Origin: a virus
Lineage: Duplodnaviria; Caudoviricetes
Strand: one strand, 5' to 3'
IMG/VR virus record: IMGVR_UViG_3300025141_000018
Length of the DNA: 64,000 nt
Part shown: one piece after another, positions 13,730-57,956 of the stretch
Layout of the letters: each line of letters begins with the position of its first letter
Position numbering within the stretch: the first letter of the stretch is position 1
The notes under the pieces: generated by a model
The model's input: the letters and a program-made list of their open reading frames with translations, nothing else
Databases searched by the model: none
Told to the model about the DNA's origin: nothing
Program-made: the position numbers and the translations under genes

Positions 13730-13737
13730 TATTTATC
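13730..13737 (-). promoter_or_regulatory. Late promoter (GATAAATA)
   Basis: TATTTATC on the + strand, 30 nt upstream of the ATG at 13700. Confidence 0.6.
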
Positions 13738-16700
13738 TATTTTAGATCTTCCAGCGCCTTGACTTTTGAGGACAGTTCTTTAATTGCATTAGTTAAAATA
13801 GGTATCATTTTAACATAATCCAACCAATAATCTGATTCTTTTTCATTATCATTAGGGGTATGTTGCAACATTGATACTGTATTCTTATCAATTCCTAATT
13901 CAGTCAATGCATCTTCCATTTCCTGTGCAATAAAACCAAACTGCTTTGGATCAGTATTATCACTTACAGTTGTTCTATAACTAATAGGATCTAAACAAGT
14001 GACAAATTCCAGTCCTAATGGTAGTGATTCAATATCACATTTAATTTTTCTATCAGAAGGTGATTGTGTCGCATCAGTGCTAATTGCGTACACTTCAGTA
14101 CCTTGTTTTTGTATAGAAAGTACTTTACCATTAGTAGCATCATTGCGATTTAGTGTCATTGTAGTAACATTCGGACTTATAAATGTACTAGCACCATCGC
14201 ATGTAATGCACATTCTTTTTACTGGTGTACCATGTGTATAAACAATATAATCTCCAGATGCATCCATGCACATATCATTTGTACTATTAAATTGTAATGC
14301 TCCGCCAGAATTGAAGCATATATTAGAGCAATAACTTACAGTATCACAAAATGTTGTTGCTCCTTGAAATGTAACTGCGCCAGTATTTGAATTAATTGCC
14401 GAAACAATGTTAGCATCAGATGCCCATTTATTTGTTAATCCTTCTACTAAGTCATCTGTAGTTTCAGCTCTTAATAATATACCACCTTGTTTACCCATGC
14501 TAGTATGATTAGCACAACCATAAGAATATCTAGCCTTTGCACTTGTTGGTACAACAAATTGAATATAGGTAGTCGCGGCATTAGTAAAAGAGGCAACATA
14601 ATCTGCGGCTGTGGAATATGTATTTCCTCCAACATGATATGATACTCCGGCTGGAGTAGTTGGATTTGATCCTCCATTAAAATCTACATCTTCTGACAAT
14701 ACTAAAGGATGCCCGGCGTTTGATGCTCCTGATTGTATAATTTTATATGTAAAACCTGGTACAAAATATAGATATGGTTGTGGGCTCCCACTATCAAATT
14801 TAAATTTACTATCAACAACAGTAACATCAAGTTCAATAATAGGAGTGGATGCCGCGGCAGTTGAATCCCACTGTGATCCATCCCATCTCATATAATCGCC
14901 AGTTCCAGGACTTATTGAAGAATTAACATCACATAATTTTTTAATTGAAGCATCTTGAAGATGTGTATTAAAACATGTCTGATCATATGGACTTGTTGAG
15001 GTTGCCCAGCAAAATGCTGATCCATTATAATAAAGATATGAGTTAGTTGTTGGACCTGCTGGTACATCACATAAAGTTAAAACTGAGCTATCACAAACAT
15101 CAGTTGGTAATGTAATTTGCCCGGTTATGTTATTATAAGCACCTATACCAGAAGTAACACAAACGGAAGCTCTTGCTCTAGTATCTGTAAAGTATAATGG
15201 ACTTGCCCCAAATTCATCAATATCGCATGTATATAAATTAATTGCACCAGTTTTTTCATTAACACAAGTTACATCATTAGTATTTTGATCTGTTTTAACT
15301 TTCCAAGATGTTGTACTATGATTATAATATAAAACTTTACCGTCATCAGCTGATGATACTGCATCAACGTCTGATAAACAAGCAAAATTTGTAGCACAAA
15401 TTCGTGTATCTACTCGTGCATCTGTATAATATAAGTTTGACGAACCTTCAGTTACGCAATCTGTACTTGTAGTAACATTATCAACATATGCTTTTACTGA
15501 TTGTTGAGATGGTACTTTAGTTGCACTATTTGAAACCATATTATCTTCGTCAACTAAAGCATTTGTTATTCTTGCATCTGCTCTTGTATCTGTAAAATAT
15601 AAGTTTGTTGAACCTTCTGTAATTTCGTCTGTATTATCTTTGCTTGCTACTTGTGCATCAACATATGCTTTTACTGATTGCTGAGATGGAAGTTTTGTTG
15701 CACTATCTGAAACCATGTTATCTTCATCAATTAATGCATTTGTAATTCTTGCATCAGCTCTTACATTTGTATAATATAAATTACCACTTTCAGTTATATC
15801 ACATGTACATAAATTAACATCACCGTGTAAACTATTAATACTCGATACAATAGCAGATAGACCCATTATGCCTGTTGTGCTATTATATGTTAAAGCGGAA
15901 CCACTTACAGAAATTGCACTTCTTGCTTTGGCATCTGTATAATATTGATTAACACATTCATTTATATCACAAGAATGAAGTACAACCGCTCCTGTTTTTG
16001 TATTAACTTGTGATACTGCATCTGTAAAAGACATAACACCAGTACTATTATTATATGCCAAGGATCCACTAACTGTAATTGCGGCTCTTGCTCTAGCATC
16101 TGTGTAATATAAATCAGTATCTTCTGCTAAATCGCATGTTTTCTTAGTTGCAAAATCTGTATCAAAATCAGCAGTTTTATACGTTGTTGCTGAAATTACT
16201 CCAGTTGCACTATTATACGATATATCACCACTACTACTTAAATGAGCTCTTGTTTCTGATGCAACAGGACCAGTAAATGTAAACACACCAGTCGAACTGT
16301 TATATACCATGCTACCATCACCGCCAGCATCTGTTAGTGAAACGGCTCCTCTAGCCCTTGCATTTGTATAATATAAATTACCACTTTCAGTTATATCACA
16401 TGTACATAAATTTATAGAACCAGTGTTTGAGTTAACACAAGTAACACCACCCGTTACAGTAATAACACCAGTACTTGAGTTATAACTACCTGAACCAGTT
16501 ACACTAATTGCTCCTCTAGCCCTTGCATCTGTATAATACAAATCAGTACACTCCGAAATATCACAAGTATAATGATTTGAAACATCTGAAATTTTACCAT
16601 ATAAACAATCCGAACGTATAGGCTTATTAAACACCCATTCGTCGTTTGTGCTTGCATAAAGTATTGTAGCATATGGAACAGGATTAGCAGAGCAACATAA

Positions 16701-17762
16701 AGTTAATTTCAATCCACCACTATTTGCGGCCGAAGGGTTAGTAACAGCGGTTCCTAAAATAGTATTAATCGCACCAATATTTTGTGTTTCACAACTAACT
16801 TGAGTTGTTGTTCCACAAACAGTTAAATCACCAGTGATTAATGAATCGCCACAAACTGTAACACAAGCACCTGTATCACATGCTATTAATGTATTTGTTA
16901 TAATATCATCTGCAACTAAATCGTTTGTAACTGTAACACAATTAAAAGTTACATTATTAGTTGTGCCAACTGCTTGTCCTATTGCTACTGCTCCACTTGT
17001 AACTGTAACACCTGTTCCAGCAGTTATAGCGGCACGAGCTCTTGCATCTGTATAATATAGATTTCCACTCTCTGTAATATCACATGTACATAAATCAATC
17101 GAACCTGTATTTTCATTAACACAAGTGACACCACCTGTAACGTTAATAACACCAGTTGAATTGTCGTAACTACCTGAACCAGTTACACTAATTGCTCCAC
17201 GGACTCGTGCAGTTGTATGATATTGATTAGTCGAGCCTTCAGTTAAATCATCTGTATCATTATTATCTAATGATTCTTTTTGTCCATCAACATCACAACT
17301 AATTGTTTGTAATCGAGTAGCAGAAGGGTGCTTTCTGAGTCTTAATAAATTAGCACCTGTGCCAATTTGTATTTCATCAACAATAATCTTTTTTAAGTTA
17401 TTTGAATCATCTTGTATTTTAAGATCGCCTGAAGCATCTCTAGATAATTTTGTACCAGCAATATCAATAGTGGTACCAGCAGTATAGATATCGTTCCATC
17501 GCTTTGTTGATGAGCCTAAATCTCTACAACAAGTTTGATCAGGAATTAATGAAGTATCAACAGTATCAAACGATGCGTATATATTAGCATCGGATGCATA
17601 TAAATTCGATCCTTCACTTAAATCAGTTGTAGATTTGGCTGTAAAATCCGTATTAAAACAGGATGAAGCATAATCTGTTTTTGCATCTATCTGTGTTTGT
17701 ACATCAGATGTTACGTTTGCTAGAAAAGGTACCTTATCTGCAATATCTCTGGCTCTACTCAT
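13737..17762 (-). CDS. Long tail fibre protein with repeated TE(G/S)xxNLYYTDAR units, a cupredoxin-like module and C-terminal S74 chaperone; Cys-rich
   Basis: About 11 NLYYT-type repeats, a duplicated DEDNMVS.SATK.PSQQSVKAYVD block, and SPSDRKIK...FGFIAQE...LDYVKMIPILTNAIKEL. About 46 Cys in 1341 aa. Confidence 0.85.
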   Translation of the reverse strand: MSRARDIADKVPFLANVTSDVQTQIDAKTDYASSCFNTDFTAKSTTDLSEGSNLYASDANIYASFDTVDTSLIPDQTCCRDLGSSTKRWNDIYTAGTTIDIAGTKLSRDASGDLKIQDDSNNLKKIIVDEIQIGTGANLLRLRKHPSATRLQTISCDVDGQKESLDNNDTDDLTEGSTNQYHTTARVRGAISVTGSGSYDNSTGVINVTGGVTCVNENTGSIDLCTCDITESGNLYYTDARARAAITAGTGVTVTSGAVAIGQAVGTTNNVTFNCVTVTNDLVADDIITNTLIACDTGACVTVCGDSLITGDLTVCGTTTQVSCETQNIGAINTILGTAVTNPSAANSGGLKLTLCCSANPVPYATILYASTNDEWVFNKPIRSDCLYGKISDVSNHYTCDISECTDLYYTDARARGAISVTGSGSYNSSTGVITVTGGVTCVNSNTGSINLCTCDITESGNLYYTNARARGAVSLTDAGGDGSMVYNSSTGVFTFTGPVASETRAHLSSSGDISYNSATGVISATTYKTADFDTDFATKKTCDLAEDTDLYYTDARARAAITVSGSLAYNNSTGVMSFTDAVSQVNTKTGAVVLHSCDINECVNQYYTDAKARSAISVSGSALTYNSTTGIMGLSAIVSSINSLHGDVNLCTCDITESGNLYYTNVRADARITNALIDEDNMVSDSATKLPSQQSVKAYVDAQVASKDNTDEITEGSTNLYFTDTRADARITNALVDEDNMVSNSATKVPSQQSVKAYVDNVTTSTDCVTEGSSNLYYTDARVDTRICATNFACLSDVDAVSSADDGKVLYYNHSTTSWKVKTDQNTNDVTCVNEKTGAINLYTCDIDEFGASPLYFTDTRARASVCVTSGIGAYNNITGQITLPTDVCDSSVLTLCDVPAGPTTNSYLYYNGSAFCWATSTSPYDQTCFNTHLQDASIKKLCDVNSSISPGTGDYMRWDGSQWDSTAAASTPIIELDVTVVDSKFKFDSGSPQPYLYFVPGFTYKIIQSGASNAGHPLVLSEDVDFNGGSNPTTPAGVSYHVGGNTYSTAADYVASFTNAATTYIQFVVPTSAKARYSYGCANHTSMGKQGGILLRAETTDDLVEGLTNKWASDANIVSAINSNTGAVTFQGATTFCDTVSYCSNICFNSGGALQFNSTNDMCMDASGDYIVYTHGTPVKRMCITCDGASTFISPNVTTMTLNRNDATNGKVLSIQKQGTEVYAISTDATQSPSDRKIKCDIESLPLGLEFVTCLDPISYRTTVSDNTDPKQFGFIAQEMEDALTELGIDKNTVSMLQHTPNDNEKESDYWLDYVKMIPILTNAIKELSSKVKALEDLK

Positions 17763-19483: not shown

Positions 19484-21076
19484 CTAACTTGTAATCATAC
19501 TATGATACGGTTCTATATAAGGCATTCTTAAATATCTATTTGGTGCACCACATATACTATCGTCATTATTATAATCATCATCTAATCCTGTTGAATATAA
19601 TCTATTTGCTATACCTTCATCAATGAGCCATTGATTAGCATCATCTTGTGTCCAAGTAGGATGAAGTTGTAACATACAAGCAATTACTCCAGTTACTTGC
19701 GGACTTGCCATACTTGTACCTGATAATGCAGTAACTTTATAACTAGAATTTCTTGGATCATTGTAGCCACTTATATAAGGACTCATAATATTTGATCCTG
19801 GTGCCCATATATGTAATCTTGCGCCTTTAGTTGACGAATATCTAGTTTGCTCATACCATGTTCCACCTGACGATAGATATGATCCTTCAACATTACCAAC
19901 AAGTCCTATATTTGCTGTTGATGTTGTTGGTGTACCACCTCTATGATAATACTTAATACTATTATAATATTTGTCAAAATACCAATTATTATAATCAATA
20001 TGCCCTGAACCTACAATTACATACTTGTTATTGCCAGCGGCATTATACATTATTATTCCATCATCTATGCAATCTTGTACATCTGCATCAATTGATGAAA
20101 CAAAATTACCATGAGTACTACTTACACCTATTCCTCTATTTTCTAATTCTGCTGGACTTGGCCAATCACTTCCAGTATAACTACCAGCACCCCAATCACC
20201 ATGTGATCCAGTATATTCATAAGTCCAATCTGTTCCTCTATAAGTTCCATAAACAGGTTGCAAAGCATTAGTATAATATGACCAACTATTATTACAAACA
20301 GTAGGTCTACCTGCATTAGGACCTGATTTATTATTATGCCATCCTCTAATTAATTCAAAACAAGTATATGAACTAATTGCATACGTATTTGATAATGTAG
20401 CCATTGCATATATGTCTGCACCTCTTGCCCAGCCGTGTGTATTACCTGCGGCTGTTCCTGCTACATGACTTCCGTGTCCGTTTTGATCGCTGTAAAAATT
20501 AGCATTTTGAGAACCAGAAATTCCTGATTCCGTATACCAATCTATTTCTTGTATTCGAGATCCACCAGTACCATCAGGATTAACTGTGTACTCTGGATGC
20601 CCGGCAGTTATACCTGTATCAATTATAACTACATCAACACCTGTGCCATCTAATGCATAATCATGATCAGCGGTTATACTTGTACTATTAACACCTCCAA
20701 ATGCATCAGTATTATTAGTATAAGAACAACTACGTAATCCCCAATTTTTTATATCAGAACCTCCTGAAGTTCTATGAAATTGTGCATCTTCATATTTTCC
20801 AAGAGTCGTAACAGGCATATTTAATATTTCCTGTTTTAATTGTACATCTAGTACTCGCGAATCATTTCTTAATTCTGCGGCTTCTAAATGTGATAATGCA
20901 TACTCTGTATTTCGTTTACTTCCCGGTCGTTTATCAACCCAATCAATAGGTTTATCCGGAATACTGGCTAAACTTGTATCAGAGTTTTTGAGCCCCGATG
21001 TGTCTTTTGTCATTTGATCAAAGAACTCTGACGGGTCACAATCTTTCTTCAGAGTAACTACATATTCTTGTTCCAT
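19484..21076 (-). CDS. Subtilisin-like serine protease (S8) with N-terminal prodomain
   Basis: Complete catalytic set: VVIIDTG (Asp), HGSHVAG (His), AAGN (oxyanion Asn), GTSMASP (Ser). No signal peptide evident. Confidence 0.92.
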   Translation of the reverse strand: MEQEYVVTLKKDCDPSEFFDQMTKDTSGLKNSDTSLASIPDKPIDWVDKRPGSKRNTEYALSHLEAAELRNDSRVLDVQLKQEILNMPVTTLGKYEDAQFHRTSGGSDIKNWGLRSCSYTNNTDAFGGVNSTSITADHDYALDGTGVDVVIIDTGITAGHPEYTVNPDGTGGSRIQEIDWYTESGISGSQNANFYSDQNGHGSHVAGTAAGNTHGWARGADIYAMATLSNTYAISSYTCFELIRGWHNNKSGPNAGRPTVCNNSWSYYTNALQPVYGTYRGTDWTYEYTGSHGDWGAGSYTGSDWPSPAELENRGIGVSSTHGNFVSSIDADVQDCIDDGIIMYNAAGNNKYVIVGSGHIDYNNWYFDKYYNSIKYYHRGGTPTTSTANIGLVGNVEGSYLSSGGTWYEQTRYSSTKGARLHIWAPGSNIMSPYISGYNDPRNSSYKVTALSGTSMASPQVTGVIACMLQLHPTWTQDDANQWLIDEGIANRLYSTGLDDDYNNDDSICGAPNRYLRMPYIEPYHSMITS

Positions 21077-21100: not shown

Positions 21101-22918
21101 TTATGTAATTTCTATAGTCCAGGATCCGTCTTTAAAGGGCATGTTGGCGTATCGGTTATGTCCGCCATGTAGGCTGTCTGTAACAGTATAATCTTGGCCG
21201 CCACCGAGCCAGGCTGCTGTGGGGCCTGCGCCATACCTATCTGCGGGAGTATTTGTAGTACCTTGGTGAATTGCTCCGGATTTATGACATTCTGATCGTA
21301 CAAAATCACGGACATTTTTTTGATTCCAATGAGGATTGGCTTCAAGTAAACAAGCAACCATACCACATACTTGTGGGCTTGCCATACTTGTACCACTTAA
21401 TGATTTCCAATGGTAACTAGAATCTCTAGGGTCGGTCCAGGAACTATTTGCGGCATTTACAGGTCCTGCAATATTAGTTCCGGGGGCCCATACATCTATT
21501 CTAGGTCCACTATTTGAATAATCTGCTTTTTTCTCTGTTGTTGTTCCAGGTTTATTAGTATCAGCGATTGCTCCAACACAAACAGGCATCATTCCATTAT
21601 CATTCCAATGCGAACCTGGGGAGCCACCTTGCATATGTTTTATTGAGCCTCTACTAACAGTTCCGTATTCGGTTGCCCAGTCTCTACCTAAATCTGACAT
21701 ATTTAATTTTCTCGGACAACCATCAGTATCGTTATATGCAACATCTATTTTGTGATATTCATTACCTGCGGCGGCTACAAAAATTACTCCAACATCCATA
21801 CATTGTTCCATATCTGCTTTTATATCTGATCTAACTCGCGGATGCACCCAATAATTAGATGGATCATCTGTATCTTCGTATCCTGTTTCACCAAAAAATT
21901 CTTTACGTTGGTTTCCTGATGTATATCCTGCTTCAGCAAATCTGTAAGCCTGACCAGAATCATAAGGATAATCACCATATCTCCATGCATGTATTGTCAT
22001 ATTCCAATAATGCTCTAAAATAATCCAACTTTGATTTACTACTGTAGGTCGTTTATATCCAGTTGATGCCTGGGCTGTTTTTTGTGTATGAAATGCTTCT
22101 ATCATATCAAAACTATATGCATGAGAAACATATGCGGCATCTTGAATTTTTTGTGACCATATACCTGCTTCTGTTGCCCATCCACAAGTATTACCTACTG
22201 CTATTCCAGCAACATGAGATCCATGTCCGTAACTATCATTATGATAACCATCATAACTATAACCACCAGGCATATTAATACCTAATGCATTCCACCAATG
22301 ATATGTGCTATCGTATCTTGAACCACCTGTGCCATCAGGATTAATTGCAAACTCGGGATGATCTCCTATTATACCTGTGTCTTGAATTATAACATCTACT
22401 CCTTTACCTGTCAAGTTATAACCATACTTTCCAGTAAGTTCTGTAGAGTTACTATTCCATCCTCCAGCAGTTGTAGTCATAGAACGTAAACCCCAATTTA
22501 CATCCCATGCTTGCGATGGACTCCTATCAAAATTCATATCAGTTGGTGCCCACCCTACTGCTCCTTGGGTACCTCTATAATGACATAATCCTATATTTTG
22601 ATGGGGATCGTTTTCAAATGGAATTTGCACATCGTCGACTCTAGGATCTTTACGTAACTCTCGCACTTCTTCTAAAGACATGCTATAATGTGTATTACAA
22701 TTACTTTTTTCTCGTCTATTTACAGTATCTATAGTTCTTGTTGGTATTTGTCCTGTATCGGAAAGGGAGGCTGAATCACGAATCATTTTATCATGAAAAT
22801 CTGTTGCATCTGCATCTTTTTTTAATGTCACGATATACTCCTCTTGAGCAGTCATATCAAGACCGTTTGCAATTTCTTCTTCTTCTAGTGCTTTTAATTC
22901 ATCTAATATGTCGCTCAT
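21101..22918 (-). CDS. Second S8 subtilase, paralogue of 19484..21076
   Basis: IIQDTG, HGSHVAG, AAGN and GTSMASP. The prodomain motif EYIVTLKKD matches EYVVTLKKD in the paralogue. Confidence 0.92.
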   Translation of the reverse strand: MSDILDELKALEEEEIANGLDMTAQEEYIVTLKKDADATDFHDKMIRDSASLSDTGQIPTRTIDTVNRREKSNCNTHYSMSLEEVRELRKDPRVDDVQIPFENDPHQNIGLCHYRGTQGAVGWAPTDMNFDRSPSQAWDVNWGLRSMTTTAGGWNSNSTELTGKYGYNLTGKGVDVIIQDTGIIGDHPEFAINPDGTGGSRYDSTYHWWNALGINMPGGYSYDGYHNDSYGHGSHVAGIAVGNTCGWATEAGIWSQKIQDAAYVSHAYSFDMIEAFHTQKTAQASTGYKRPTVVNQSWIILEHYWNMTIHAWRYGDYPYDSGQAYRFAEAGYTSGNQRKEFFGETGYEDTDDPSNYWVHPRVRSDIKADMEQCMDVGVIFVAAAGNEYHKIDVAYNDTDGCPRKLNMSDLGRDWATEYGTVSRGSIKHMQGGSPGSHWNDNGMMPVCVGAIADTNKPGTTTEKKADYSNSGPRIDVWAPGTNIAGPVNAANSSWTDPRDSSYHWKSLSGTSMASPQVCGMVACLLEANPHWNQKNVRDFVRSECHKSGAIHQGTTNTPADRYGAGPTAAWLGGGQDYTVTDSLHGGHNRYANMPFKDGSWTIEIT

Positions 22919-23892
22919 TATGTATTCACCACCGTAGCTCTAGTATCAAATCTAAGCCAATTAGTGCCATCATAAAATACTGGAGTAGGTTGAGCATTAC
23001 TAGATCCGTCTGTTGCATCACATGCATATGCTATTGCTCCTGCACTTGGTGCGCCTAGAGCATTTAAAGCGGTAACTGTACATACTGCTAAACCAATAGG
23101 CGAACACGCTCTTGTTTCACCAGCGGCGTTAAGACAAATATAATTTCCTGCATTTATATTAAATGTGCCTGATGCAGTTGTAATCAAACAACATGAAATA
23201 CATAAAGTATTAGCAACTAATGTTCCACCAATATGTGCATTACATGCAATGCCTACACCACCAGATACCATAAATGCACCTGTTGTTGAACTTGTTGATT
23301 GGGTTGTATTTGTTATAGTAAGTGTACCATCAGTACAATAACAAACATCATGTCCTGAATATTTGCAAAGATAGCCTGTTCCTGAACCACCTGTAATACC
23401 TGTTAAGTTACTTCCATCACCAATGAAACAATCAGCAGTAACATTTCCACCAACTTTTATATCGCATACTACACTAATTCCGCCATCGGTTTGTATAGAC
23501 CCATCAGTTGTAGATGTTGCATTTGTAGTATTTTCAGTATATATTTTACTTTCTGATATAATATGTCCTTCAATATACGCATCGCATTTAACACCTAAGC
23601 CTCCTGAGCAGGCTATTAAAGAACCGGTTACTCCTGATGTTGCATTAGTATTTTGAGTTGCGGTATAAACTGTGGCTGATTGAATTGTATTACAAGTAAG
23701 AGTACCGGAGACTGTCATGTCTCCTGCTACATTAATGTCACCACCAATCCAAGCATCACATGCAATACCGGCTCCACCTAGCATTACTAAGGCACCTGTG
23801 CTAGTACTTGTTGAATTTGTTGTTGTCTTAAGACATAATTTATCTGCGGTTAAATTATAATCACCGCAAATACAAGAAGTGATGTCAGTCAT
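22918..23892 (-). CDS. Cys-rich fibre-repeat virion protein
   Basis: Four TTNSTS.TTGAL..GG.G.ACD-type repeats. About 20 Cys in 324 aa. Confidence 0.7.
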   Translation of the reverse strand: MTDITSCICGDYNLTADKLCLKTTTNSTSTSTGALVMLGGAGIACDAWIGGDINVAGDMTVSGTLTCNTIQSATVYTATQNTNATSGVTGSLIACSGGLGVKCDAYIEGHIISESKIYTENTTNATSTTDGSIQTDGGISVVCDIKVGGNVTADCFIGDGSNLTGITGGSGTGYLCKYSGHDVCYCTDGTLTITNTTQSTSSTTGAFMVSGGVGIACNAHIGGTLVANTLCISCCLITTASGTFNINAGNYICLNAAGETRACSPIGLAVCTVTALNALGAPSAGAIAYACDATDGSSNAQPTPVFYDGTNWLRFDTRATVVNT

Positions 23893-23903
23893 TAGTGATT
23901 ATC

Positions 23904-24665
23904 CTAGTGTAAATCTGTCCATGCACCGTTAGCATATCCTCTAAATTTGCAAGTATCGGATTTATAATACATTTGGCCTTCGGCACCTGCTGGATCACTT
24001 GTGGCAGTATGAAGTTGAACAACATTGCTCATTGTTAATTTACCAGCAATGTATGCATCACAAGCAACTCCAATTCCTCCATCTGTTTGTATTGAGCCAG
24101 TTGTACCACTAGTTGAATTAGTAGTACTGTCAACAGTAATGGCACCAGCAATGTATGCATCACAAGTAACTCCAAGTCCGCCATCTGTTTGTATTGAGCC
24201 AGTTGTACCATTAGTTGAATTAGTAGTACTATCGACAGTGATGGCACCACCAATATATACATCACAAGCAACTCCAAGTCCACCAGCATTAGTAATAGCA
24301 CCTGTGGTTGTGCTAGTTGAATTCGTTGTATCTGTTGCACTAATAATACCTGCGGCTATTGTTTTAACAAAAACACAATTCCATTTTTGTGGCGCAGAAC
24401 CTAAATTATAGGTTTCATCTGTATCGGGTATAATATGTGATATTACATCAGCAGTAAAACAAACAGAATCAGTATTAGCATCACCAATAACTGTATTACC
24501 AGTGGCATATAAATTACCTCCAACACAAATATCTTTAGTAACACCAACTCCACCTGCAACAACTAACGCACCGGTTGTTGTACTTGTTGAATTTGTGTCA
24601 CTTATTATTGTTACACATGTTGAATCAATACTATATTCGCCTGCTATTTTTTCTGTATGTTTCAT
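23904..24665 (-). CDS. Fibre-repeat virion protein
   Basis: Four STTNSTSTTTG...GG.GVACD repeats. The C-terminal module is shared with 24674..25612. Confidence 0.7.
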   Translation of the reverse strand: MKHTEKIAGEYSIDSTCVTIISDTNSTSTTTGALVVAGGVGVTKDICVGGNLYATGNTVIGDANTDSVCFTADVISHIIPDTDETYNLGSAPQKWNCVFVKTIAAGIISATDTTNSTSTTTGAITNAGGLGVACDVYIGGAITVDSTTNSTNGTTGSIQTDGGLGVTCDAYIAGAITVDSTTNSTSGTTGSIQTDGGIGVACDAYIAGKLTMSNVVQLHTATSDPAGAEGQMYYKSDTCKFRGYANGAWTDLH

Positions 24666-24673
24666 TTATATCT

Positions 24674-25612
24674 CTAATGTAAATCTGTCCATGCTCCATT
24701 AGCGTATCCTCTGAACTTGCAAGTATCTGTTTTATAATACATCATTCCTTCAGTTCCTGCAGGATCGCTAGTTGCACCATGTAATTTAATTGTTCCGCCC
24801 ATTGTTAAACTTGTTAATGTACCAACACTTGTAATACCTGCTTGTGCGGCATCTACACTTAAAGAATGGGCAACATTTTCTCCGGTAGTTGCTCCTGAAG
24901 ATGTTAGTCCGGTTCCAGCAGTTAATGTTCCAACATAGTTACCGGAAGTATCAGTACCAAGTGTAACCGAATTTGCTTGAATTGTTGCTGTTCCTGTTAC
25001 ATTTCCTGATCCATCAAACCCACTTGAAGTCCATACAACATCTCCTGTCATACCAATAGTTCTAGCCGTTGTAAGTTTATCAGCAGTTCCTGATGAACCA
25101 CCAGTTGAGCCAGCAGTTGTAGCACAACAAACTGAAAAATCACATGCTAATACTTTTTTAAATGCATTATCAGTTGCATCAACAACTACTAGATAATCAG
25201 TGTTACTGTCAATTGGATTATACATTTGATCGCATATAACACCTGTGCTAACAGTCATACAACCACTAGAAGCAAGAGTTATATCTCCTGAAACTGCTTT
25301 TGCGGTATAGCAACTTCCTTGCCCTACTAATACATTTCCTGCAGATGCAGTTGCAGTAACAACATCTGTTAAACAATTAAGGGCTAAACCAGTTGTGTGT
25401 GCTACTGATTTCCAAGTACATGAAGATGGATCAGAATCAAAATATTCTACTGCATATGTTTCATTATTATATCTTAACGAACCACCTTTTAGTGTACTAC
25501 CTGAAGCACAACGAGAAGCAGTATTACCAGCAGGCAACACCATATTACTACATGTGCCTACTTCTAAATTGCTCGGTGCTGAGCTCGGATATGGTACTAT
25601 TACTGAAGTCAT
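24674..25612 (-). CDS. Fibre-related virion protein (true start 25612, MTSVIVP)
   Basis: The listed start at 25807 lies inside gp23 and crosses its terminator. The ATG at 25612 follows a late promoter. About 11 Cys in 312 aa. Confidence 0.7.
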   Translation of the reverse strand: MTSVIVPYPSSAPSNLEVGTCSNMVLPAGNTASRCASGSTLKGGSLRYNNETYAVEYFDSDPSSCTWKSVAHTTGLALNCLTDVVTATASAGNVLVGQGSCYTAKAVSGDITLASSGCMTVSTGVICDQMYNPIDSNTDYLVVVDATDNAFKKVLACDFSVCCATTAGSTGGSSGTADKLTTARTIGMTGDVVWTSSGFDGSGNVTGTATIQANSVTLGTDTSGNYVGTLTAGTGLTSSGATTGENVAHSLSVDAAQAGITSVGTLTSLTMGGTIKLHGATSDPAGTEGMMYYKTDTCKFRGYANGAWTDLH

Positions 25613-25638
25613 AATTAAATCATTCTTTATATTGTAAT

Positions 25639-25646
25639 TATTTATC
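25639..25646 (-). promoter_or_regulatory. Late promoter (GATAAATA)
   Basis: TATTTATC on the + strand, 27 nt upstream of the ATG at 25612. Confidence 0.6.
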
Positions 25647-25665
25647 TTTAAGAAATAATGGTCAT

Positions 25666-25696
25666 AAAAAAAGGTACTGCCGAAACAGTACCTTTT
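25666..25696 (-). terminator. Rho-independent terminator after the major capsid gene
   Basis: Minus strand reads GGTACTG-T-TTCG-G-CAGTACC followed by 7 T, 10 nt after the gp23 stop. Confidence 0.9.
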
Positions 25697-25706
25697 GTAG
25701 TAAACC

Positions 25707-26876
25707 TTAAATGAATGAAAGGTTTGTTGTGTTGATTGCGATCTTTGCAAGATAGTCGCCAGCATTACCCAAGGATGATGCTGAGTTTGAAAGTTCAACA
25801 TAACCATATCTGGTTAAGAAACTTACGACTGGTTCGAACGAAGTCGGATCAAGTACAACACCAGAGCTCATCAACGGAACGTATGGGCAATAGAAAGATG
25901 CCGCATCCATTTCGCCTGGTCCTTTATAACCAACGAGGATGTCTGTGCTGTCAGTTGCGTATGCGTCAACATAAACACGAACTGAACTGTTCAATGTACC
26001 AACAAATTTTGTATTAGTTGGTGCTTCGAAAGTACCTTCAGTTGTTCTTGCGAACGCTGAAGTTGTTGCACTTTGCAATACTGTAAGAGCAGTTGGTGAA
26101 ACAACTACCCAGTTACCTGCACCACGACGTGTGCGTTGAGCTATCAAGTTAGCGGCTCTATTTACAAGAACTGCTAAAGCGGCATGCTCGTCGCCAACAT
26201 ATGTGGCTGTACCAGATACGGAACCTTGGTCGTATGTACCAATGGCCGTTCCGGACAATGTTCTTAAACTGCCAAGAATGTCTTGATCAATCTCTGCTGT
26301 AATCTCTTGTGCTAAAGCGGCCATAATCTCTGCTTCAACATCAAGCCCATGCTGGGATTGTGCATCTTGTGCGGCTTCAAAAGTCCAACGAGCGGACAGT
26401 CTGCGTGACTGAGCTTCGACTGTTTGCTTTAAGACTTGAATGGATAGCCTGTTACCGGCAACCCCTTCTAAATCTGCTGTTGGGCTCGGTGCGGCCGATG
26501 ATCCTGGTGCACCTGAATAATTTGTTGCGATATCAAACGGACTAAGAGCTTCTTGACCTGCAGTTCCACCATTATCGGTGTCTGAGTATCGTACTCTTAA
26601 CGTATGTATCTGTGCTACGGGTCCACTCATTGGTTGGACTCCGATTATTTCGTTAGCAATAACTGTAGGCATAACCCTGCGGATGACCGGTAAAATAACC
26701 TTATTCAATGTTGCAACGTTACCAGCATGTGAAGCACCAGCGGTTGCTGTCTCCATCAACTGGGAGCGTGTATTTTCTAAGGTTGTTTCCATGACAACTT
26801 TTTTGTTGCCTTGTAGACCGTCGCAGAGAGCCTCTTTTGTTTGTTGCCAATTTGACTCAAAAATTGCGTCTGCCAT
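25707..26876 (-). CDS. gp23: Major capsid protein (T4 gp23-like)
   Basis: VRRVMPTVIANEIIGVQPMSGP, EAQSRRLSARWTFEAAQD, EIMAALAQEITAEID and FYCPYVPL are gp23 signatures. Confidence 0.97.
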   Translation of the reverse strand: MADAIFESNWQQTKEALCDGLQGNKKVVMETTLENTRSQLMETATAGASHAGNVATLNKVILPVIRRVMPTVIANEIIGVQPMSGPVAQIHTLRVRYSDTDNGGTAGQEALSPFDIATNYSGAPGSSAAPSPTADLEGVAGNRLSIQVLKQTVEAQSRRLSARWTFEAAQDAQSQHGLDVEAEIMAALAQEITAEIDQDILGSLRTLSGTAIGTYDQGSVSGTATYVGDEHAALAVLVNRAANLIAQRTRRGAGNWVVVSPTALTVLQSATTSAFARTTEGTFEAPTNTKFVGTLNSSVRVYVDAYATDSTDILVGYKGPGEMDAASFYCPYVPLMSSGVVLDPTSFEPVVSFLTRYGYVELSNSASSLGNAGDYLAKIAINTTNLSFI

Positions 26877-32831: not shown

Positions 32832-34679
32832 TTAGTTAGAGAAGTAATCTCGTAAAGCTCGGTCTTGTTGTGCATTAGATCTCTGAAGTCGTGTATTCTC
32901 TTGAACTGTACTTGTTGTTTCAATTGCCGCTTTAACTTGTTCCTTAATTCCACCAGTCAGAGCCTCTATGTCTCTACCCAACCTTCCTAAAAAGTTTGAA
33001 AAGTTTTCATTTAATTTTAGTAATGCTGAAGTATTTTCAGATAATGCTACTTGATTTTCAGTACCAGTTCCTGAAACGGTAGCAGTAGGGGCTATTCCAA
33101 CACCGTTGGTAGATTTACTTTTAAATAACATTTGTATAAATTCTGATTCTCCAAGTGATTGCGCCTGGGCTCTAAGTTGTGTATTTAAATCCATCCCTGA
33201 TGCACCAAAAAAATCATCTGCTAACCCTTTCATCCGATTTGGAGTCTTAATTAAGTAATCAAGCACGGCTTGCTCGGTTAATCCTGTTTCTTTTCCTATA
33301 TCCTGTAACATTGATGTTAATGTTTCTGCAGTTTCAAATCCCATGGCCTTCAATGTACTAACAGTACCTTTAATTGCACTCTCTGCACCTAGTGCCATTT
33401 TAGTTACAGTATCACCCTCTTTTATTCGGGCTCTAATAGCGGCTAGTTCCTCTTCGTTTACTGCTCTCTGAACAGTACCTAGTTTCATGTGTAACTTTAT
33501 ACCATCATTAAACATTGATTGTTGTATATAATATTCTGACTCGCGACCAGATTTTATTTCTTCATTAAACCGTCTTGCAGAGGCTAATGCAGATGTACCT
33601 GTGCCATCTTTTATATACTGCATCATTTGTTCTAAGCCTTCCATTGTTACATCAGTGGCCGCAACCAGTTGTTTCATATCTTCACTGGATCCTGCTAATC
33701 CTAAACCAGTAGTTACCATTTGAGTAATTTGATTGGCTATTTCTGTACCGTCTTCGCCAAACTGAGAAGTTAATATTCCAACTAATTCTTGTTGGCGTCT
33801 TTGAACTGCGGCAGTATCTCCGCCCTGGGCTTGAATTTGTGCTAGATAAGTTTGCAACGGTACACCAGAACCTGCTTGTTGTTGTGCTAACAATATTTCT
33901 CGTCTATCTCTACCTGTAATCTGTGCCATTGCAGTTGCTTCGTCAGCCATTGCTAATATTGCATCTCTAGCCCGATTTGCGGCTAAGTCTCCTTGGATTC
34001 CTTGCATTCTTTGTATTTCTAATTGCCCAACTAATAAATCATTTAACTCTTCTTGTCGCATGCCATACATACCCATTTGAGCTAAATTTATTGTAAGTTC
34101 CTCTGATAAGGCACCAAATCGTTGTGCAGACTCTATTGCAGAGTCTCCTAGATTTCGAATAGTTATGCCATTCTCTATTAGTATACTATTAAAAGCATCA
34201 ATTGTCAACCTAGAACTCGCGGCCGCTTGTGCAATTCGTGTCATTTCCCCACTTAAACCAAGTCCAACATTTGATAAATCTCTAACACGTCTAACATATC
34301 CATCCATCATTGTCATGGCAGTTGCAAATATACCTGTACCATCATCAACAAGTTGTGATAAACTTTTAAATGAACCATCTACTTTATCAAGGTTTCTAAT
34401 AAGTTTTCCTAATTGTCCAGTTGCTCCCGTAATTAACTTACCAAAGCCGCTTATCCAGTTCGCTGGATTTAATCCACCACCAAAAGCACCTCCAGATTTT
34501 ATTGCTTGAACAGTTGCTCTAGTACCTTTAGTAATTGCCTGTTGTGTTTGATTGCCTTCATCAACAGAGGTACTTCTTACACCTTTTATTGCTTCTACTA
34601 ATTCTTGTAATGTTTGCTCATTAGCCCATTCAGGATAGTCTACTCCCTGTTCTAATGCTGACATTGAAACTCGTGGCAT
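32832..34679 (-). CDS. Tape measure protein (gp29-like)
   Basis: 615-aa helical Ala/Gln/Gly-rich protein with PEWANEQTL N-terminus, divergent from the gp26-like gene. Size is close to T4 gp29. Confidence 0.75.
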   Translation of the reverse strand: MPRVSMSALEQGVDYPEWANEQTLQELVEAIKGVRSTSVDEGNQTQQAITKGTRATVQAIKSGGAFGGGLNPANWISGFGKLITGATGQLGKLIRNLDKVDGSFKSLSQLVDDGTGIFATAMTMMDGYVRRVRDLSNVGLGLSGEMTRIAQAAASSRLTIDAFNSILIENGITIRNLGDSAIESAQRFGALSEELTINLAQMGMYGMRQEELNDLLVGQLEIQRMQGIQGDLAANRARDAILAMADEATAMAQITGRDRREILLAQQQAGSGVPLQTYLAQIQAQGGDTAAVQRRQQELVGILTSQFGEDGTEIANQITQMVTTGLGLAGSSEDMKQLVAATDVTMEGLEQMMQYIKDGTGTSALASARRFNEEIKSGRESEYYIQQSMFNDGIKLHMKLGTVQRAVNEEELAAIRARIKEGDTVTKMALGAESAIKGTVSTLKAMGFETAETLTSMLQDIGKETGLTEQAVLDYLIKTPNRMKGLADDFFGASGMDLNTQLRAQAQSLGESEFIQMLFKSKSTNGVGIAPTATVSGTGTENQVALSENTSALLKLNENFSNFLGRLGRDIEALTGGIKEQVKAAIETTSTVQENTRLQRSNAQQDRALRDYFSN

Positions 34680-34688
34680 TTTCGTCCT

Positions 34689-34723
34689 TATAAATACGAT
34701 TGAACACTTTCTTATATTTATTC
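34689..34723. promoter_or_regulatory. Divergent pair of late promoters
   Basis: TATAAATA on + at 34689-34696 (towards 34725) and AATAAATA on - at 34716-34723 (towards 34679). Confidence 0.7.
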
Positions 34724-34724
34724 T

Positions 34725-35552
34725 ATGGAAAACCCCTTAAAACAATACTTTAGGGCGCCTGGTGCTTTTATCAAGTTACCTAGTAAAGGTATGTTCTATT
34801 CAGTTCCTCCTAAACTTTCAGTAGAAGGGGAATTAGCAATTTATCCAATGACAGCAGAAGATGAGCTGTGGCTTAAAAATCCTGATGCATTATTAAATGG
34901 AGAAGCACTAAAGCGAATTGTTGCTAGTTGTGCCCCTGATATTCATAATCCAGAAGAAACTACAATAGCCGATGCTGATGTTATTATGGTTACTGCAAGA
35001 TTTGTTACATATGGTGATGATCTTACAGTTTCTAGCGAATGTCCAACTTGTCGTGAAAATACAGATTATTCATTTAAACTTCCTGATATAATTGCTAACA
35101 TTAGAGAAATGCCTGCGGAAACTTTTGTAAACATAAACGAACTAAAAGTATTTTTAAAACCCTCAACAGTTGCATTACAAACAAAACAAGGAGTAGCGGC
35201 ACTTCAGTATAGAATGTTGCTTAATAAACTTGCGGTTGAAAACAAAGAACCCGAAGAAAGGCAACAAGAATTATTAAAATCATTTGCTCATAATGTTACT
35301 ACAATGCAATTTGAAACATTAAGAGAAAATATTGTTAAAATTGAAATGCCTGATGGTAATCATGTTTCAAATAAAGATCATGTTAAAGACTGGTTGAGGA
35401 ATATTAAAAAAGTTGAGTTTGATGCTCTAAATAGTAAAATTGACGACTTAAATAATTCTGGTACCGACATTGATTATAACGCAGAATGCCGGGCATGTTC
35501 GCACAAATATAATACCAGGATTAGCATGGATCCAATATCTTTTTTCGGATAA
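34725..35552 (+). CDS. Baseplate hub/tail assembly chaperone (T4 gp26/gp51-like family) with two CxxC motifs
   Basis: MENPLKQYFRAP..IKLPSKG.FY, IYPMTAEDE..LKNPDALLNGEA, CPTC and CRAC. Confidence 0.8.
   Translation: MENPLKQYFRAPGAFIKLPSKGMFYSVPPKLSVEGELAIYPMTAEDELWLKNPDALLNGEALKRIVASCAPDIHNPEETTIADADVIMVTARFVTYGDDLTVSSECPTCRENTDYSFKLPDIIANIREMPAETFVNINELKVFLKPSTVALQTKQGVAALQYRMLLNKLAVENKEPEERQQELLKSFAHNVTTMQFETLRENIVKIEMPDGNHVSNKDHVKDWLRNIKKVEFDALNSKIDDLNNSGTDIDYNAECRACSHKYNTRISMDPISFFG
35540..35546 (+). other. Predicted -1 ribosomal frameshift site T_TTT_TTC
   Basis: In-frame X_XXY_YYZ heptamer (TCT TTT TTC GGA TAA) two codons before the stop. The -1 frame stays open for 78 codons. Confidence 0.7.
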
Positions 35553-35782
35553 GGCTTCTTGACGCAGGATGGGATAACATCGACTCGCTAGTTGAGGAGT
35601 TTTGGACCGAAAGCGATCAATTTACTAAAGGTTTATTAGAACTAGTTGTTAATACCGAAGGTACGGTATCATACGAAGATGTGACAAAAATGAGTGCCAA
35701 GGAAAGAAAACTATTAATTGAAGTTGTTAATGAACGTAATGAGAAATTAAATAAACAAATGCAGGAAAATTCTAGAAAGTAG
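35546..35782 (+). CDS. -1-frame extension of the chaperone (gp51/T-domain-like), no own start codon
   Basis: RIRLLDAGWDNIDSLVEEFWTESDQFTKGLLELVVNTEGTVSYEDVTKMSAKERKLLIEVVNERNEKLNKQMQENSRK*. An in-frame TAG at 35522 closes it upstream. The first GTG/ATG lies about 45 codons in. Confidence 0.7.
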   Translation, partial: RIRLLDAGWDNIDSLVEEFWTESDQFTKGLLELVVNTEGTVSYEDVTKMSAKERKLLIEVVNERNEKLNKQMQENSRK

Positions 35783-36638
35783 ACGGCATATCATAGTCTC
35801 TACGAGTATTACTCCAATGAGCATTTATACCATCCCATTTTTGAGAAACTTTAGCCATTGCTTTCCAAGACATTTCTTCCTTAGGTATTTTAGTTGCAGG
35901 TTCTCTTATTAATTTATGAGGTAATGGATTTTTGTATGTACGTAATTTTACATTTGAATATTTGTAGATATGTGACCATCCAGTATGTGTATGAAAATGT
36001 CTTTCTTTTATTTTAGGATCTGTTATACAAAATTTCATAATATCTAGAATAGGTTCATATAACATTTTTGAAGCACTATGACTTCCAAAGTATACTATAT
36101 CTACAATTTTTGTTTTGCCACGTTTTAAAGTCATATCTGTTGTATACATGCCATCAGGCTCTTTATTTTTTGCCCAACTTATTGCATCTTCAATGGGAGC
36201 GGCCGCATTATAGTTTATAGCACAATCTAATCGCATTCTATATACAATGTCGTAATTATCTTCTAATAATTTAAAACTATTATATGCACTAAAAAACATG
36301 CCGTATGCTTGATAATTTCCTGCATGTCCAATTTCATGTTCTGTTTCTTGTTTTTCAGGATCTCCCCAATAGCAACAATCTGGATTTTCTTCAAGCCATT
36401 CGTCTATAATATTATACCCTGTAATTTCTATACGTTTAAAAGGATAACAATCATTTAAATCTCGTTTTAATTTTTCTAAATCATGTTTTACAACGACTTC
36501 GGCTACTGTTTGAGTATCCCATGTATGTAAGTAATAATCAACAGAGGTTTCCTCAGTTTCAAAATATTTTCGATTGAATAAACATCCTATATCTGCAAAC
36601 CGAGGTTGTCCACTAAAACATACTGCTACTTTTTTCAT
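35772..36638 (-). CDS. Putative glycosyltransferase-like protein
   Basis: KVAVCFSGQPRF, VDYYLHTW and YDIVYRMRLDC, a pattern seen in uncharacterised GT-like proteins of polysaccharide loci. Confidence 0.5.
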   Translation of the reverse strand: MKKVAVCFSGQPRFADIGCLFNRKYFETEETSVDYYLHTWDTQTVAEVVVKHDLEKLKRDLNDCYPFKRIEITGYNIIDEWLEENPDCCYWGDPEKQETEHEIGHAGNYQAYGMFFSAYNSFKLLEDNYDIVYRMRLDCAINYNAAAPIEDAISWAKNKEPDGMYTTDMTLKRGKTKIVDIVYFGSHSASKMLYEPILDIMKFCITDPKIKERHFHTHTGWSHIYKYSNVKLRTYKNPLPHKLIREPATKIPKEEMSWKAMAKVSQKWDGINAHWSNTRRDYDMPSTF

Positions 36639-57600: not shown

Positions 57601-57956
57601 AAAGTAAAGTAATTACCGCAATAGATGCGTATTTTAATGTTGAAAATTGGGATTTTGGTGAAACATTCTATTTTACAGAATTATCAGCATACATACACCA
57701 ATCATTAGCAGGTATTGTAAGTTCTGTTGTTATTGTTCCTGTAAGTCAAGCAAGTGTATTTGGTGATTTATTTCAAATTACACCAAACTTAGATGAAGTG
57801 TTTATTAGCTCAGCACACATAACAGATGTTGAAATTGTTTCAGCATTAACAGATACTAATTTAAGAACAACTGCAACAACTGCAACAGAATCAAGTACAG
57901 AAGAAATTGTTACCACATCGTTTGTAGGTGGTAGTACATCAACAGGGTCGTATTAA
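54609..57956 (+). CDS. gp6: Baseplate wedge protein gp6-like
   Basis: FKAYDYDSIREALINY, ENILDTA..SSVLNLA..GYNP, FADG.YGEIP, ES...IKQNAP..YASQNRMVSAQDY and DYFNVENWDFGE. Confidence 0.9.
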   Translation: MATTLRQKKLLAAEDFTALYESFASANFKAYDYDSIREALINYVQDNYAEDYNDWIESSEFVALVDLFSFIGHSIAFRLDLTTRENILDTATKSSSVLNLARFVGYNPSRCNPATGLLKLKALRTTETIYDFNGTDIGNTDIIWGDASNTDYYEQFITVLNRAFQTINQFGNPYKKGTVDNISTEVYKLNSNTEKAEVTYPFTAIANGSSHSFEVVNGTFKDTEYFYEDDPDPSAAMSLYYRNDGTGFLSKDTGFFVMFKQGSLQHTDYTLDKAIENRVIDIDTENINNTDVWVQNISADGTVTTANKWTKVDSTEGNNVIYNSLNKNIRKIFSVISRLNDTISIKFADGNYGEIPRNLMRVWYRTSNGDTYVLRSADVQDVSITIPYIGIDGLSYDLTCTFDLEYTVRTATATESVDNIKQNAPLVYASQNRMVSAQDYTVFPYTQSSAVKKVKAVNRTNIGHNRFLTFNDPTGVYTNLNIFGSDGYIYKDSLLKRKIITLPSTYTNQEIADDLMTNMLFDADVMNFYYENYPKITGTPYLASSDSAVKIFRQVSSTSTTSTGYFKVGGSLTTAAAVGTSYTTDTILKVIKKDALLGFVEPATGDTEESTWASSTAHTITWAKVLSVTGSGLGTFDTDGNYTGKDTAGVGTISLSQRIPDNARIRHAVPHFRRKFTPSERDLIVEQLSLKNSFGIGYDEGLDLWWIVDEDNISEPSTTFVRNVVQDNTNTNPSWIIRAEVKNNKIEFLIRHSRYIFSSDKEVRFYNPNIKRSIDVDTNKPVVDQISVLGTNTKPGETTLIGSDIKFNPVGTVTYNDGYSDPTKLIISPADENLDLVPDFPDSFEQIVGADTNKIYFNKVTEGGYEYERYTPNTTTTTKTGRATLKFQWKHYATDERKIDPSASNIIDIFVLTENYDNEFREWLAANGSVSTKPAEPTQTDLNTLLSGIKDYKMSSDEIVFKPVKYKILFGQKADLEMQARFKVIKAPGINLTDNEIKSKVITAIDAYFNVENWDFGETFYFTELSAYIHQSLAGIVSSVVIVPVSQASVFGDLFQITPNLDEVFISSAHITDVEIVSALTDTNLRTTATTATESSTEEIVTTSFVGGSTSTGSY

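Follow-up and report, generated by a model that had tools for sequence, protein, structure and literature searches.

We analysed a 64,000-nt stretch of viral DNA (Duplodnaviria; Caudoviricetes; IMG/VR record IMGVR_UViG_3300025141_000018), referred to below as the window, and found that a gene at 34725-35782, related to genes 26 and 51 of bacteriophage T4, very probably encodes two proteins by means of programmed -1 ribosomal frameshifting at a T_TTT_TTC heptamer. Most ribosomes would remain in frame 0 and terminate at 35550, giving rise to a gp26-like protein of 275 amino acids (aa). A fraction of the ribosomes would slip back by one base with tRNA-Phe in both the P and A sites on T_TTT_TTC, continue with CGG ATA AGG... 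in the -1 frame, and come to an end at 35782. The slip would add a helical domain of 78 residues, and the resultant product would be a 352-aa, gp51-like protein. The PF12322 body would be present in full in both forms, the C-terminal domain being the sole difference between them. The gene comprises the following parts.

34725-35782, + strand: whole recoded gene, with a predicted long form of 352 aa (frame 0 at 34725-35546, then frame -1 at 35546-35779).
34725-35552, + strand: gp26-like short-form gene in frame 0, 275 aa, assigned by PF12322, phrog_150 and a confident AlphaFold model.
35522-35524, + strand: TAG closing the -1 frame, six codons 5' of the heptamer, read from the letters.
35540-35546, + strand: slippery heptamer T_TTT_TTC in the X_XXY_YYZ register, read from the letters; proposed site of the -1 tandem tRNA slip.
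35546-35782, + strand: start-less extension in the -1 frame, 78 codons plus TAG by translation; putative helical, gp51-like C-terminal domain of the long form.

The 3' end of the gp26-like gene reads TCT TTT TTC GGA TAA, with the stop codon at 35550-35552. From 35525 onwards, the -1 frame contains no stop until the TAG at 35780-35782, with 78 sense codons after the slip (35546-35779); the junction in the 352-aa product would be ..PISFF followed by RIRLLDAGW.. The first-pass annotation of this DNA had described the same gene end, heptamer, closing TAG at 35522, 78 codons and product of ~352 aa, all of which proved correct on direct reading and translation. Its statement that the -1 frame has no start for about 45 codons agrees with the earliest ATG/GTG/TTG in the window being a GTG 46 codons past the slip. 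The 220-nt 'gap' up to the next gene is filled exactly by the -1 frame. The extension overlaps tail-to-tail by 11 nt with a convergent open reading frame (ORF) at 35772-36638 (- strand; phrog_13607, unknown function), its TAG lying within the 3' end of the latter, and no terminator-like site is present between the two.

The conservation of the slippery site was surveyed in 92 tabulated loci, namely the window, 11 jumbo phages in GenBank and 80 IMG/VR contigs, and two additional metagenome contigs were inspected by eye. Protein identity to the window gene is 24-74% across the whole comparison set, and 29-74% for the 80 IMG/VR loci. An in-frame X_XXY_YYZ heptamer was found at the homologous Phe-Phe (FF) position in all 92 tabulated loci, plus both loci read by eye. 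The tabulated variants are T_TTT_TTC (80 loci), T_TTT_TTT (7) and A_AAT_TTT (5), of which the IMG/VR loci account for 71, 4 and 5, respectively. The two loci read by eye carry T_TTT_TTG (L016) and A_AAT_TTT, and looked like exceptions at the protein level only. The homopolymer at the site is 6 T long in most loci and 7-9 T long in some, with 9 T in phage RsoM2USA.

In-frame heptamers are not uncommon in these AT-rich genes (rate elsewhere in the genes, 0.0056 per codon; another site in 73 of the 92 genes), so that a single heptamer means little and it is the positional conservation that counts. A heptamer lies within the last 25 codons in 92/92 loci, whereas ~0.14 per locus is expected, a conservation that goes far beyond chance. 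The codons used at the site are also peculiar. TTC is the second Phe codon at the FF sites of 80 of 87 loci, in contrast to 26% TTC (and 74% TTT) elsewhere, and the base preceding the FF codons is T in every case, whether it belongs to a Ser, His, Val, Ala, Asn or Asp codon, compared with 36% T at third positions elsewhere. Thus, conservation of an FF dipeptide would not in itself be expected to produce the combination of T, TTT and the less-used codon TTC.

The reading frames around the site follow the same pattern. A zero-frame stop occurs 1-4 codons past the site in 79 of the 80 IMG/VR loci, in which the -1 frame runs on for a median of 77 codons, as opposed to 8 codons for the +1 frame used as a control. 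The window and the 11 GenBank phages possess an aligning -1 ORF of 73-91 codons in every locus. The -1 peptides of the 92 loci fall into 79 clusters at 90% identity, 48 at 60% and 24 at 40%. When the -1 peptide alone was used as a tblastn query, it matched the -1 frame right downstream of the homologous gene in phages Kaldavass, RsoM2USA, EJP2 and Hallingskeid. The first-pass annotation had proposed to look for TTTTTTC and the -1 ORF in homologous loci, and the survey bears it out, as the heptamer and a homologous -1 frame co-occur throughout the tabulated set.

We also examined a more distant set, the best 150 matches among 1.84 billion representatives, each being at most 50% identical to the others. 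The proteins end 0-15 residues past FF in 140 of them and just past NF or DF at the same spot in eight, the other two being truncated; an in-frame extension beyond the site was seen in none of the 150. DNA was read for two of the eight NF/DF representatives, one of which has T_TTT_TTG and the other A_AAT_TTT.

The -1 frame bears the signature of a coding sequence. Differences between the window and a 74%-identical relative (L013) are distributed over the three -1 codon positions as 18/13/33, which can be compared with 47/31/91 in the gene body. The first 18 residues past the slip are identical between the two, and the changes there are synonymous. The junction motif FF-R-x-R-L-L-[ST]-x-x-P-E-E-I is kept over 48 clusters, and its conservation starts exactly at the heptamer, 5' of the ATGs picked by some annotators. 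A canonical start is absent for 40-46 codons in the window and its 74% relative. RsoM2USA also lacks a start, and its record has no coding sequence (CDS) annotated downstream of the gp26-like gene. AlphaFold modelling of the lone extension with a 40-sequence alignment yielded four helices with a predicted local distance difference test (pLDDT) score of 92.2, in accordance with the 'helical segment' of the first-pass annotation.

The short form matches PF12322 (T4_baseplate) with an E value of 1.3e-14 and 54.9 bits against a cut-off of 24.5, residues 50-274 being aligned to positions 35-218 of the 219 in the profile, and phrog_150 'baseplate hub' with an E value of 6.8e-16. Its AlphaFold model has a pLDDT of 94.3. 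Two Cys pairs, C106/C109 and C255/C258, are invariant or nearly so in alignments of 12 and 71 sequences, and both gp26 and gp51 of T4 have Cys pairs at places aligned to those of the window protein. Judged by the gathering score and the Cys pairs, the window protein is a member of the PF12322 family. In T4, gp26 (208 aa) and gp51 (249 aa) both belong to PF12322 end to end, and gp51 bears ~48 additional C-terminal residues; the gp51-type C-terminal domain is PF28602 in newer Pfam. The positions of phrog_150 covered are 14-235 for gp26, 13-280 for gp51 and 3-226 for the short form of the window. gp26 and gp51 show weak likeness to each other in BLASTP (2e-6 over 160 residues).

The extension appears to correspond to the C-terminus of gp51. 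An extension profile built from 12 phages aligned with the C-terminal 30 residues in a gp51 alignment of 22 members (hhalign E = 0.0033, score 23.2). None of 300 column shuffles reached this score, the maximum being 19.3, and an independent 40-sequence extension profile hit the same place in gp51 (E = 0.0022). The two share the motifs F..LL..P[DE]EI and Y...M...ER, and the junction resembles F-K-L-L-L-N-P-D-E-I of gp51. Furthermore, a profile of 13 fused proteins is collinear with the T4 gp51 family (15-351 versus 4-257, E = 2e-4). Single-sequence HMM scans of the extension and the fusion for the gp51 C-terminal domain gave no match, and a T4-type gp51 HMM, whose profile is too narrow, detected nothing significant or collinear in the fused proteins. 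A search of BFVD with the extension model also returned nothing significant, gp51 not being retrieved. Taken together, these comparisons lend moderate support to homology between the extension and the gp51 C-terminus, and the assignment of the short form as gp26-like and of the long form as gp51-like appears well supported.

The number of PF12322 genes per complete genome is one in each of PA5oct, GAP32, Atu_ph07 and RsoM2USA, and two in T4. This one-gene versus two-gene pattern and the collinearity of the fused profile with gp51 uphold the link to gp26/gp51 that had been drawn in the first-pass annotation. As in the short form of the window, PF12322 makes up the body of both T4 proteins, with the ~48-aa domain appended in gp51. 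Nevertheless, T4 has two diverged genes on opposite strands, and the FF codons of gene 26 are TTC TTT, which is non-slippery, whereas the window and the complete jumbo genomes checked have one gene with a frameshift. The window protein is also ~65 aa longer than gp26, and its identity to the T4 proteins is very low. At the 3' end of T4 gene 26 (L012 3803-3830, - strand), gp26 ends with ..EFFELL*, and thus has in frame the F-F-x-x-L-L-type junction motif whose completion in the jumbo phages takes place only in the -1 frame. As a speculation, T4 gene 26 may derive from a long-form-like copy that was cut off after the junction.

The logic of the proposed system would be a fixed ratio of a chaperone to the same chaperone bearing an extra docking domain. 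gp26 and gp51 are hub assembly chaperones of T4, and gp51 is required for assembly and is not in the particle (PMC3004832). By analogy, the two forms encoded in the window would act in building the central hub/tape-measure part of the baseplate and be largely missing from the finished virion. A gp51 homologue of Acinetobacter phage Berthold (MN709128.1 119798-120547) is named 'tape measure protein assembly chaperone', a record name from which at least one annotator reads gp51 as a tape-measure chaperone.

Several points weigh against the interpretation described above. Support for the long protein is comparative, the low frequency of the fusion given in the first-pass annotation is an assumption, and the function is assigned by analogy from T4 genetics as given in a review (PMC3004832). 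The match between the extension and the gp51 C-terminus has an hhalign probability of 10-13%, corresponding to a modest homology. As for elements stimulating the slip, such as the conserved downstream stem-loop and upstream Shine-Dalgarno-like element of dnaX-type frameshifts, RNAalifold detected no shared RNA structure 3' of the site among 13 loci, and no Shine-Dalgarno-like element was seen 10-14 nt upstream of the heptamer in the window. ATG, GTG or TTG is present within the first 10 codons past the slip in 44 of the 80 IMG/VR loci (absent in 36). Small separate ORFs are annotated in GenBank for Kaldavass, in which the ATG overlaps the stop, EJP2, Phosso, XaC1, GAP32 and SCTP-2, and separate initiation may occur in some lineages. 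A joined CDS is annotated in none of the 11 GenBank records, and single extensions matched, among PHROGs, phrog_18291 only, which represents the annotated small ORFs and is of unknown function. A possible stimulator in the window is the following hairpin.

35547-35608, + strand: predicted hairpin just 3' of the heptamer, candidate stimulator (-21 kcal/mol, z -2.46).

Among 200 shuffles of this hairpin, four fold equally well. A downstream hairpin with z <= -2 occurs in 7 of the 13 loci, and that of the closest relative, L013, is weak (z -0.57).

The start codons and small ORFs mentioned above would be accounted for if the -1 frame were a separate gene of ~75 aa, expressed either through termination-reinitiation or by use of a non-canonical start close to the stop, with the T run merely reflecting FF. 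Odd starts do occur in the gp26/gp51 family, as an internal AUU serves as a start in T4 gene 26. Nevertheless, we regard this possibility as unlikely. No canonical start is available for 40-46 codons in the window and its 74% relative, or in RsoM2USA, and the annotated starts lie downstream of the conserved FF-R-x-R-L-L motif, which begins at the heptamer. FF alone explains neither the invariant preceding T nor the choice of TTT-TTC, and the A_AAT_TTT variants encode the second F in the -1 reading alone. In T4 gp51, moreover, this domain and a PF12322 body form a single polypeptide. As many loci are start-less and the motif precedes the starts where these are present, separate initiation can hardly be the conserved mechanism.

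An even smaller chance is given to stuttering of RNA polymerase on the T run, which would add one U to some transcripts, normal reading of which would then yield the long form. The site is indeed a homopolymer run, mostly of 6 T and up to 9 T, the same protein would result, and minority transcripts are compatible with the contig data. Nevertheless, six T is short for efficient slippage by bacterial RNA polymerase, and the run invariably keeps to the X_XXY_YYZ register, a property relevant to ribosomes only. The A_AAT_TTT sites (five tabulated loci and one read by eye) are not homopolymers and represent a canonical tandem-slip site. A metatranscriptome contig across the site has an unshifted T6, which is weak evidence because contigs drop rare variants. 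Thus, ribosomal tandem tRNA slippage accords with the strict register and the A_AAT_TTT variants, whereas polymerase stuttering, for which a homopolymer is required and the reading frame is immaterial, does not.

Finally, it is scarcely credible that a sequencing error in the homopolymer, or a recent mutation, split a single 352-aa gene: errors are common in homopolymer runs, and joining the two frames does yield a single gp51-like protein, but contigs from three DNA runs of three studies agree and, together with the metatranscriptome contig, span the site without a gap, the stretch occurs in runs of marine and seawater metagenomes from 17 studies, and the same frame break is found in 92/92 loci and implied in at least 140 of the 150 distant representatives, no homologue having both parts in one frame. 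The gapless contigs from DNA and RNA libraries and the family-wide pattern exclude a sequencing error, and the indel that the first-pass annotation had considered as a possible flaw is seen in none of the independent assemblies.

Programmed -1 frameshifting at T_TTT_TTC in this gene can be compared with known systems. Lambda-like and P2-like phages are characterized by programmed frameshifts in their tail chaperone genes, and a -1 frameshift conserved in tail assembly chaperone genes, including lambda G/GT, was reportedly described by Xu, Hendrix and Duda in 2004. As in lambda G/GT, the first ORF contains a canonical heptamer close to its 3' end and is overlapped by a start-less extension ORF, an arrangement conserved among relatives. 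The short and long forms share an N-terminal body in both systems, would both be helpers in tape-measure/hub assembly, and are encoded beside a tape-measure-like gene. Unlike lambda G/GT-type pairs, which are located between the genes for the tail tube and the tape measure and share their orientation, the window gene is divergent from the tape-measure-like gene, has no adjacent tube gene and is followed by a convergent gene. Its 275-aa body, which has a predicted zinc site, far exceeds gpG in size. P2 E/E+E' is the tail chaperone system of a contractile-tail phage, in which the slip takes place on a six-T run (TTTTTTG-type) and E is small. The window gene resembles it in the slip on a T run, and the relative L016 has exactly T_TTT_TTG, whereas the protein family and gene neighbourhood are different.

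No match to the Phage_TAC, gpG or gpE families was obtained for the window protein; Pfam and PHROGs give PF12322 and baseplate-hub families, save for a marginal match to phrog_1854 'PmgB-like' (E = 0.0013). Foldseek detected nothing in the PDB at E <= 0.001 for the short-form model, and a profile of 71 homologues had no match among PDB sequences. VIA-align of the short form against 48,161 chains gave generic helical-hairpin matches with Z up to 7.5. Weak matches were seen with the HK97 chaperone 2ob9_B (Z 5.7, root-mean-square deviation 5.4, 85 of 104 residues, on model residues 1-101) and with YqbN 3klu, presumably XkdN-like (Z 5.4, 86 of 119 residues, on 127-246). These are the only domain-covering matches, and their Z scores lie in the range commonly seen for the method; the likeness of the modelled short form to the tail assembly chaperone fold is thus a lead, not a result. 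The first-pass annotation had likened the gene to lambda G/GT and P2 E/E', and the likeness holds for the mechanism and logic but does not amount to demonstrated homology, as the family match is to PF12322 only and the fold matches have Z of 5.4-5.7.

In phage P1, pmgB is located just upstream of the tape measure gene, and PmgB, which is absent from virions, was proposed to be a tape measure chaperone (PMC9024508); no frameshift is reported for pmgB, and no search aimed at one was made here. The only 'programmed frameshift tail chaperone' of a giant phage encountered in the literature searched, that of phage G, is listed in the order tail tube, chaperones, tape measure (PMC12484599). From this usual gene order, phage G appears to represent a classical case distinct from the PF12322 frameshift. 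The proposed system would represent the two-form logic of the lambda/P2 type in the PF12322 chaperone family, which appears to be unrelated to G/GT and E/E'. Alternatively, though we consider it rather doubtful, PF12322 proteins could be extremely diverged homologues of G/GT and E/E+E', perhaps with two chaperone-like domains. If the latter is true, the frameshift would be ancestral to all long-tailed phages, and would have been 'resolved' by duplication in T4 26/51.

We found no published report of a PF12322 frameshift in a full-text literature search, journals outside the coverage of which may hold one, and no description of such a frameshift in the T4 superfamily in the literature searched. 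If the frameshift proposed here is genuine, the same two-form logic arose or persisted in a different protein family. The annotation would then be corrected in all the jumbo genomes read (Rak2-like phages, Asteriusvirus, PA5oct, Atu_ph07, XacN1 and others), and probably in hundreds more; the genomes read currently show a gap or a spurious small ORF at the site. Gene finders would also gain a clean and deeply conserved recoding signal. If the homology to G/GT is true as well, the long-unexplained 'catalytic' gp51 would be a GT-like docking form of a tape-measure/hub chaperone.

The window derives from a giant myovirus of marine origin. A T4-type portal, a prohead protease, a major head protein and a 615-aa virion protein are followed by the hub gene on the other strand, and then by RusA and SbcC-like recombination genes. 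In tblastn, the relatives among isolates were Phosso, Atu_ph07, PA5oct, RsoM2USA, XaC1, XacN1, GAP32, Asteriusvirus, Kaldavass and SCTP-2, which are Rak2-like and other jumbo phages, with identities of 24-31%. The order of portal, structural protein and divergent hub gene is common to PA5oct, XaC1 and GAP32, and the GenBank record of PA5oct states that the structural protein was detected by mass spectrometry. Two features lie immediately 5' of the hub gene in the window.

32832-34679, - strand: divergent neighbour, a 615-aa virion structural protein, probably the tail tape measure (phrog_14121, language-model features, place and size).
34689-34696, + strand: candidate T4-type late promoter TATAAATA, equal to the T4 late-promoter consensus, 28 nt 5' of the ATG.

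The neighbour matches phrog_14121 'virion structural protein', and its language-model features score 0.90-0.91 to tape-measure clusters; BLASTP detected no similarity to T4 gp29. A predicted complex of this protein with the short form scored 0.01, which is evidence neither for nor against binding. The first-pass annotation had placed the hub gene next to the tape measure gene. The two genes do adjoin, on divergent strands, and the identity of the neighbour as a tape measure comes from features, place and size, not from sequence similarity. TATAAATA occurs once in the 64-kb window versus 14.6 +/- 4.6 copies expected from shuffles, being strongly avoided elsewhere, and by analogy to T4 the copy at 34689-34696 is a possible late promoter.

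Other genes in the window deserve brief mention. The paralogous neighbours at 19484-21076 (- strand, 530 aa) and 21101-22918 (- strand, 605 aa) both match phrog_9158 (unknown function) and, more weakly, phrog_3677 'protease'. The products of the adjacent genes 22918-23892 and 23904-24665 (both - strand), just downstream of the major head protein region, contain a short repeat typical of head-decoration/structural proteins (phrog_697, phrog_3018). The ORF listed for the major head protein (phrog_138) and the next ORF, which between them occupy 24674-25807 and 25707-26876 (both - strand), overlap by ~100 nt, and one true start is probably further in. Very large ORFs are found at 57956-64000 (+ strand), 8030-12607 (- strand) and 13737-17762 (- strand), encoding >2015, 1525 and 1341 aa, respectively.

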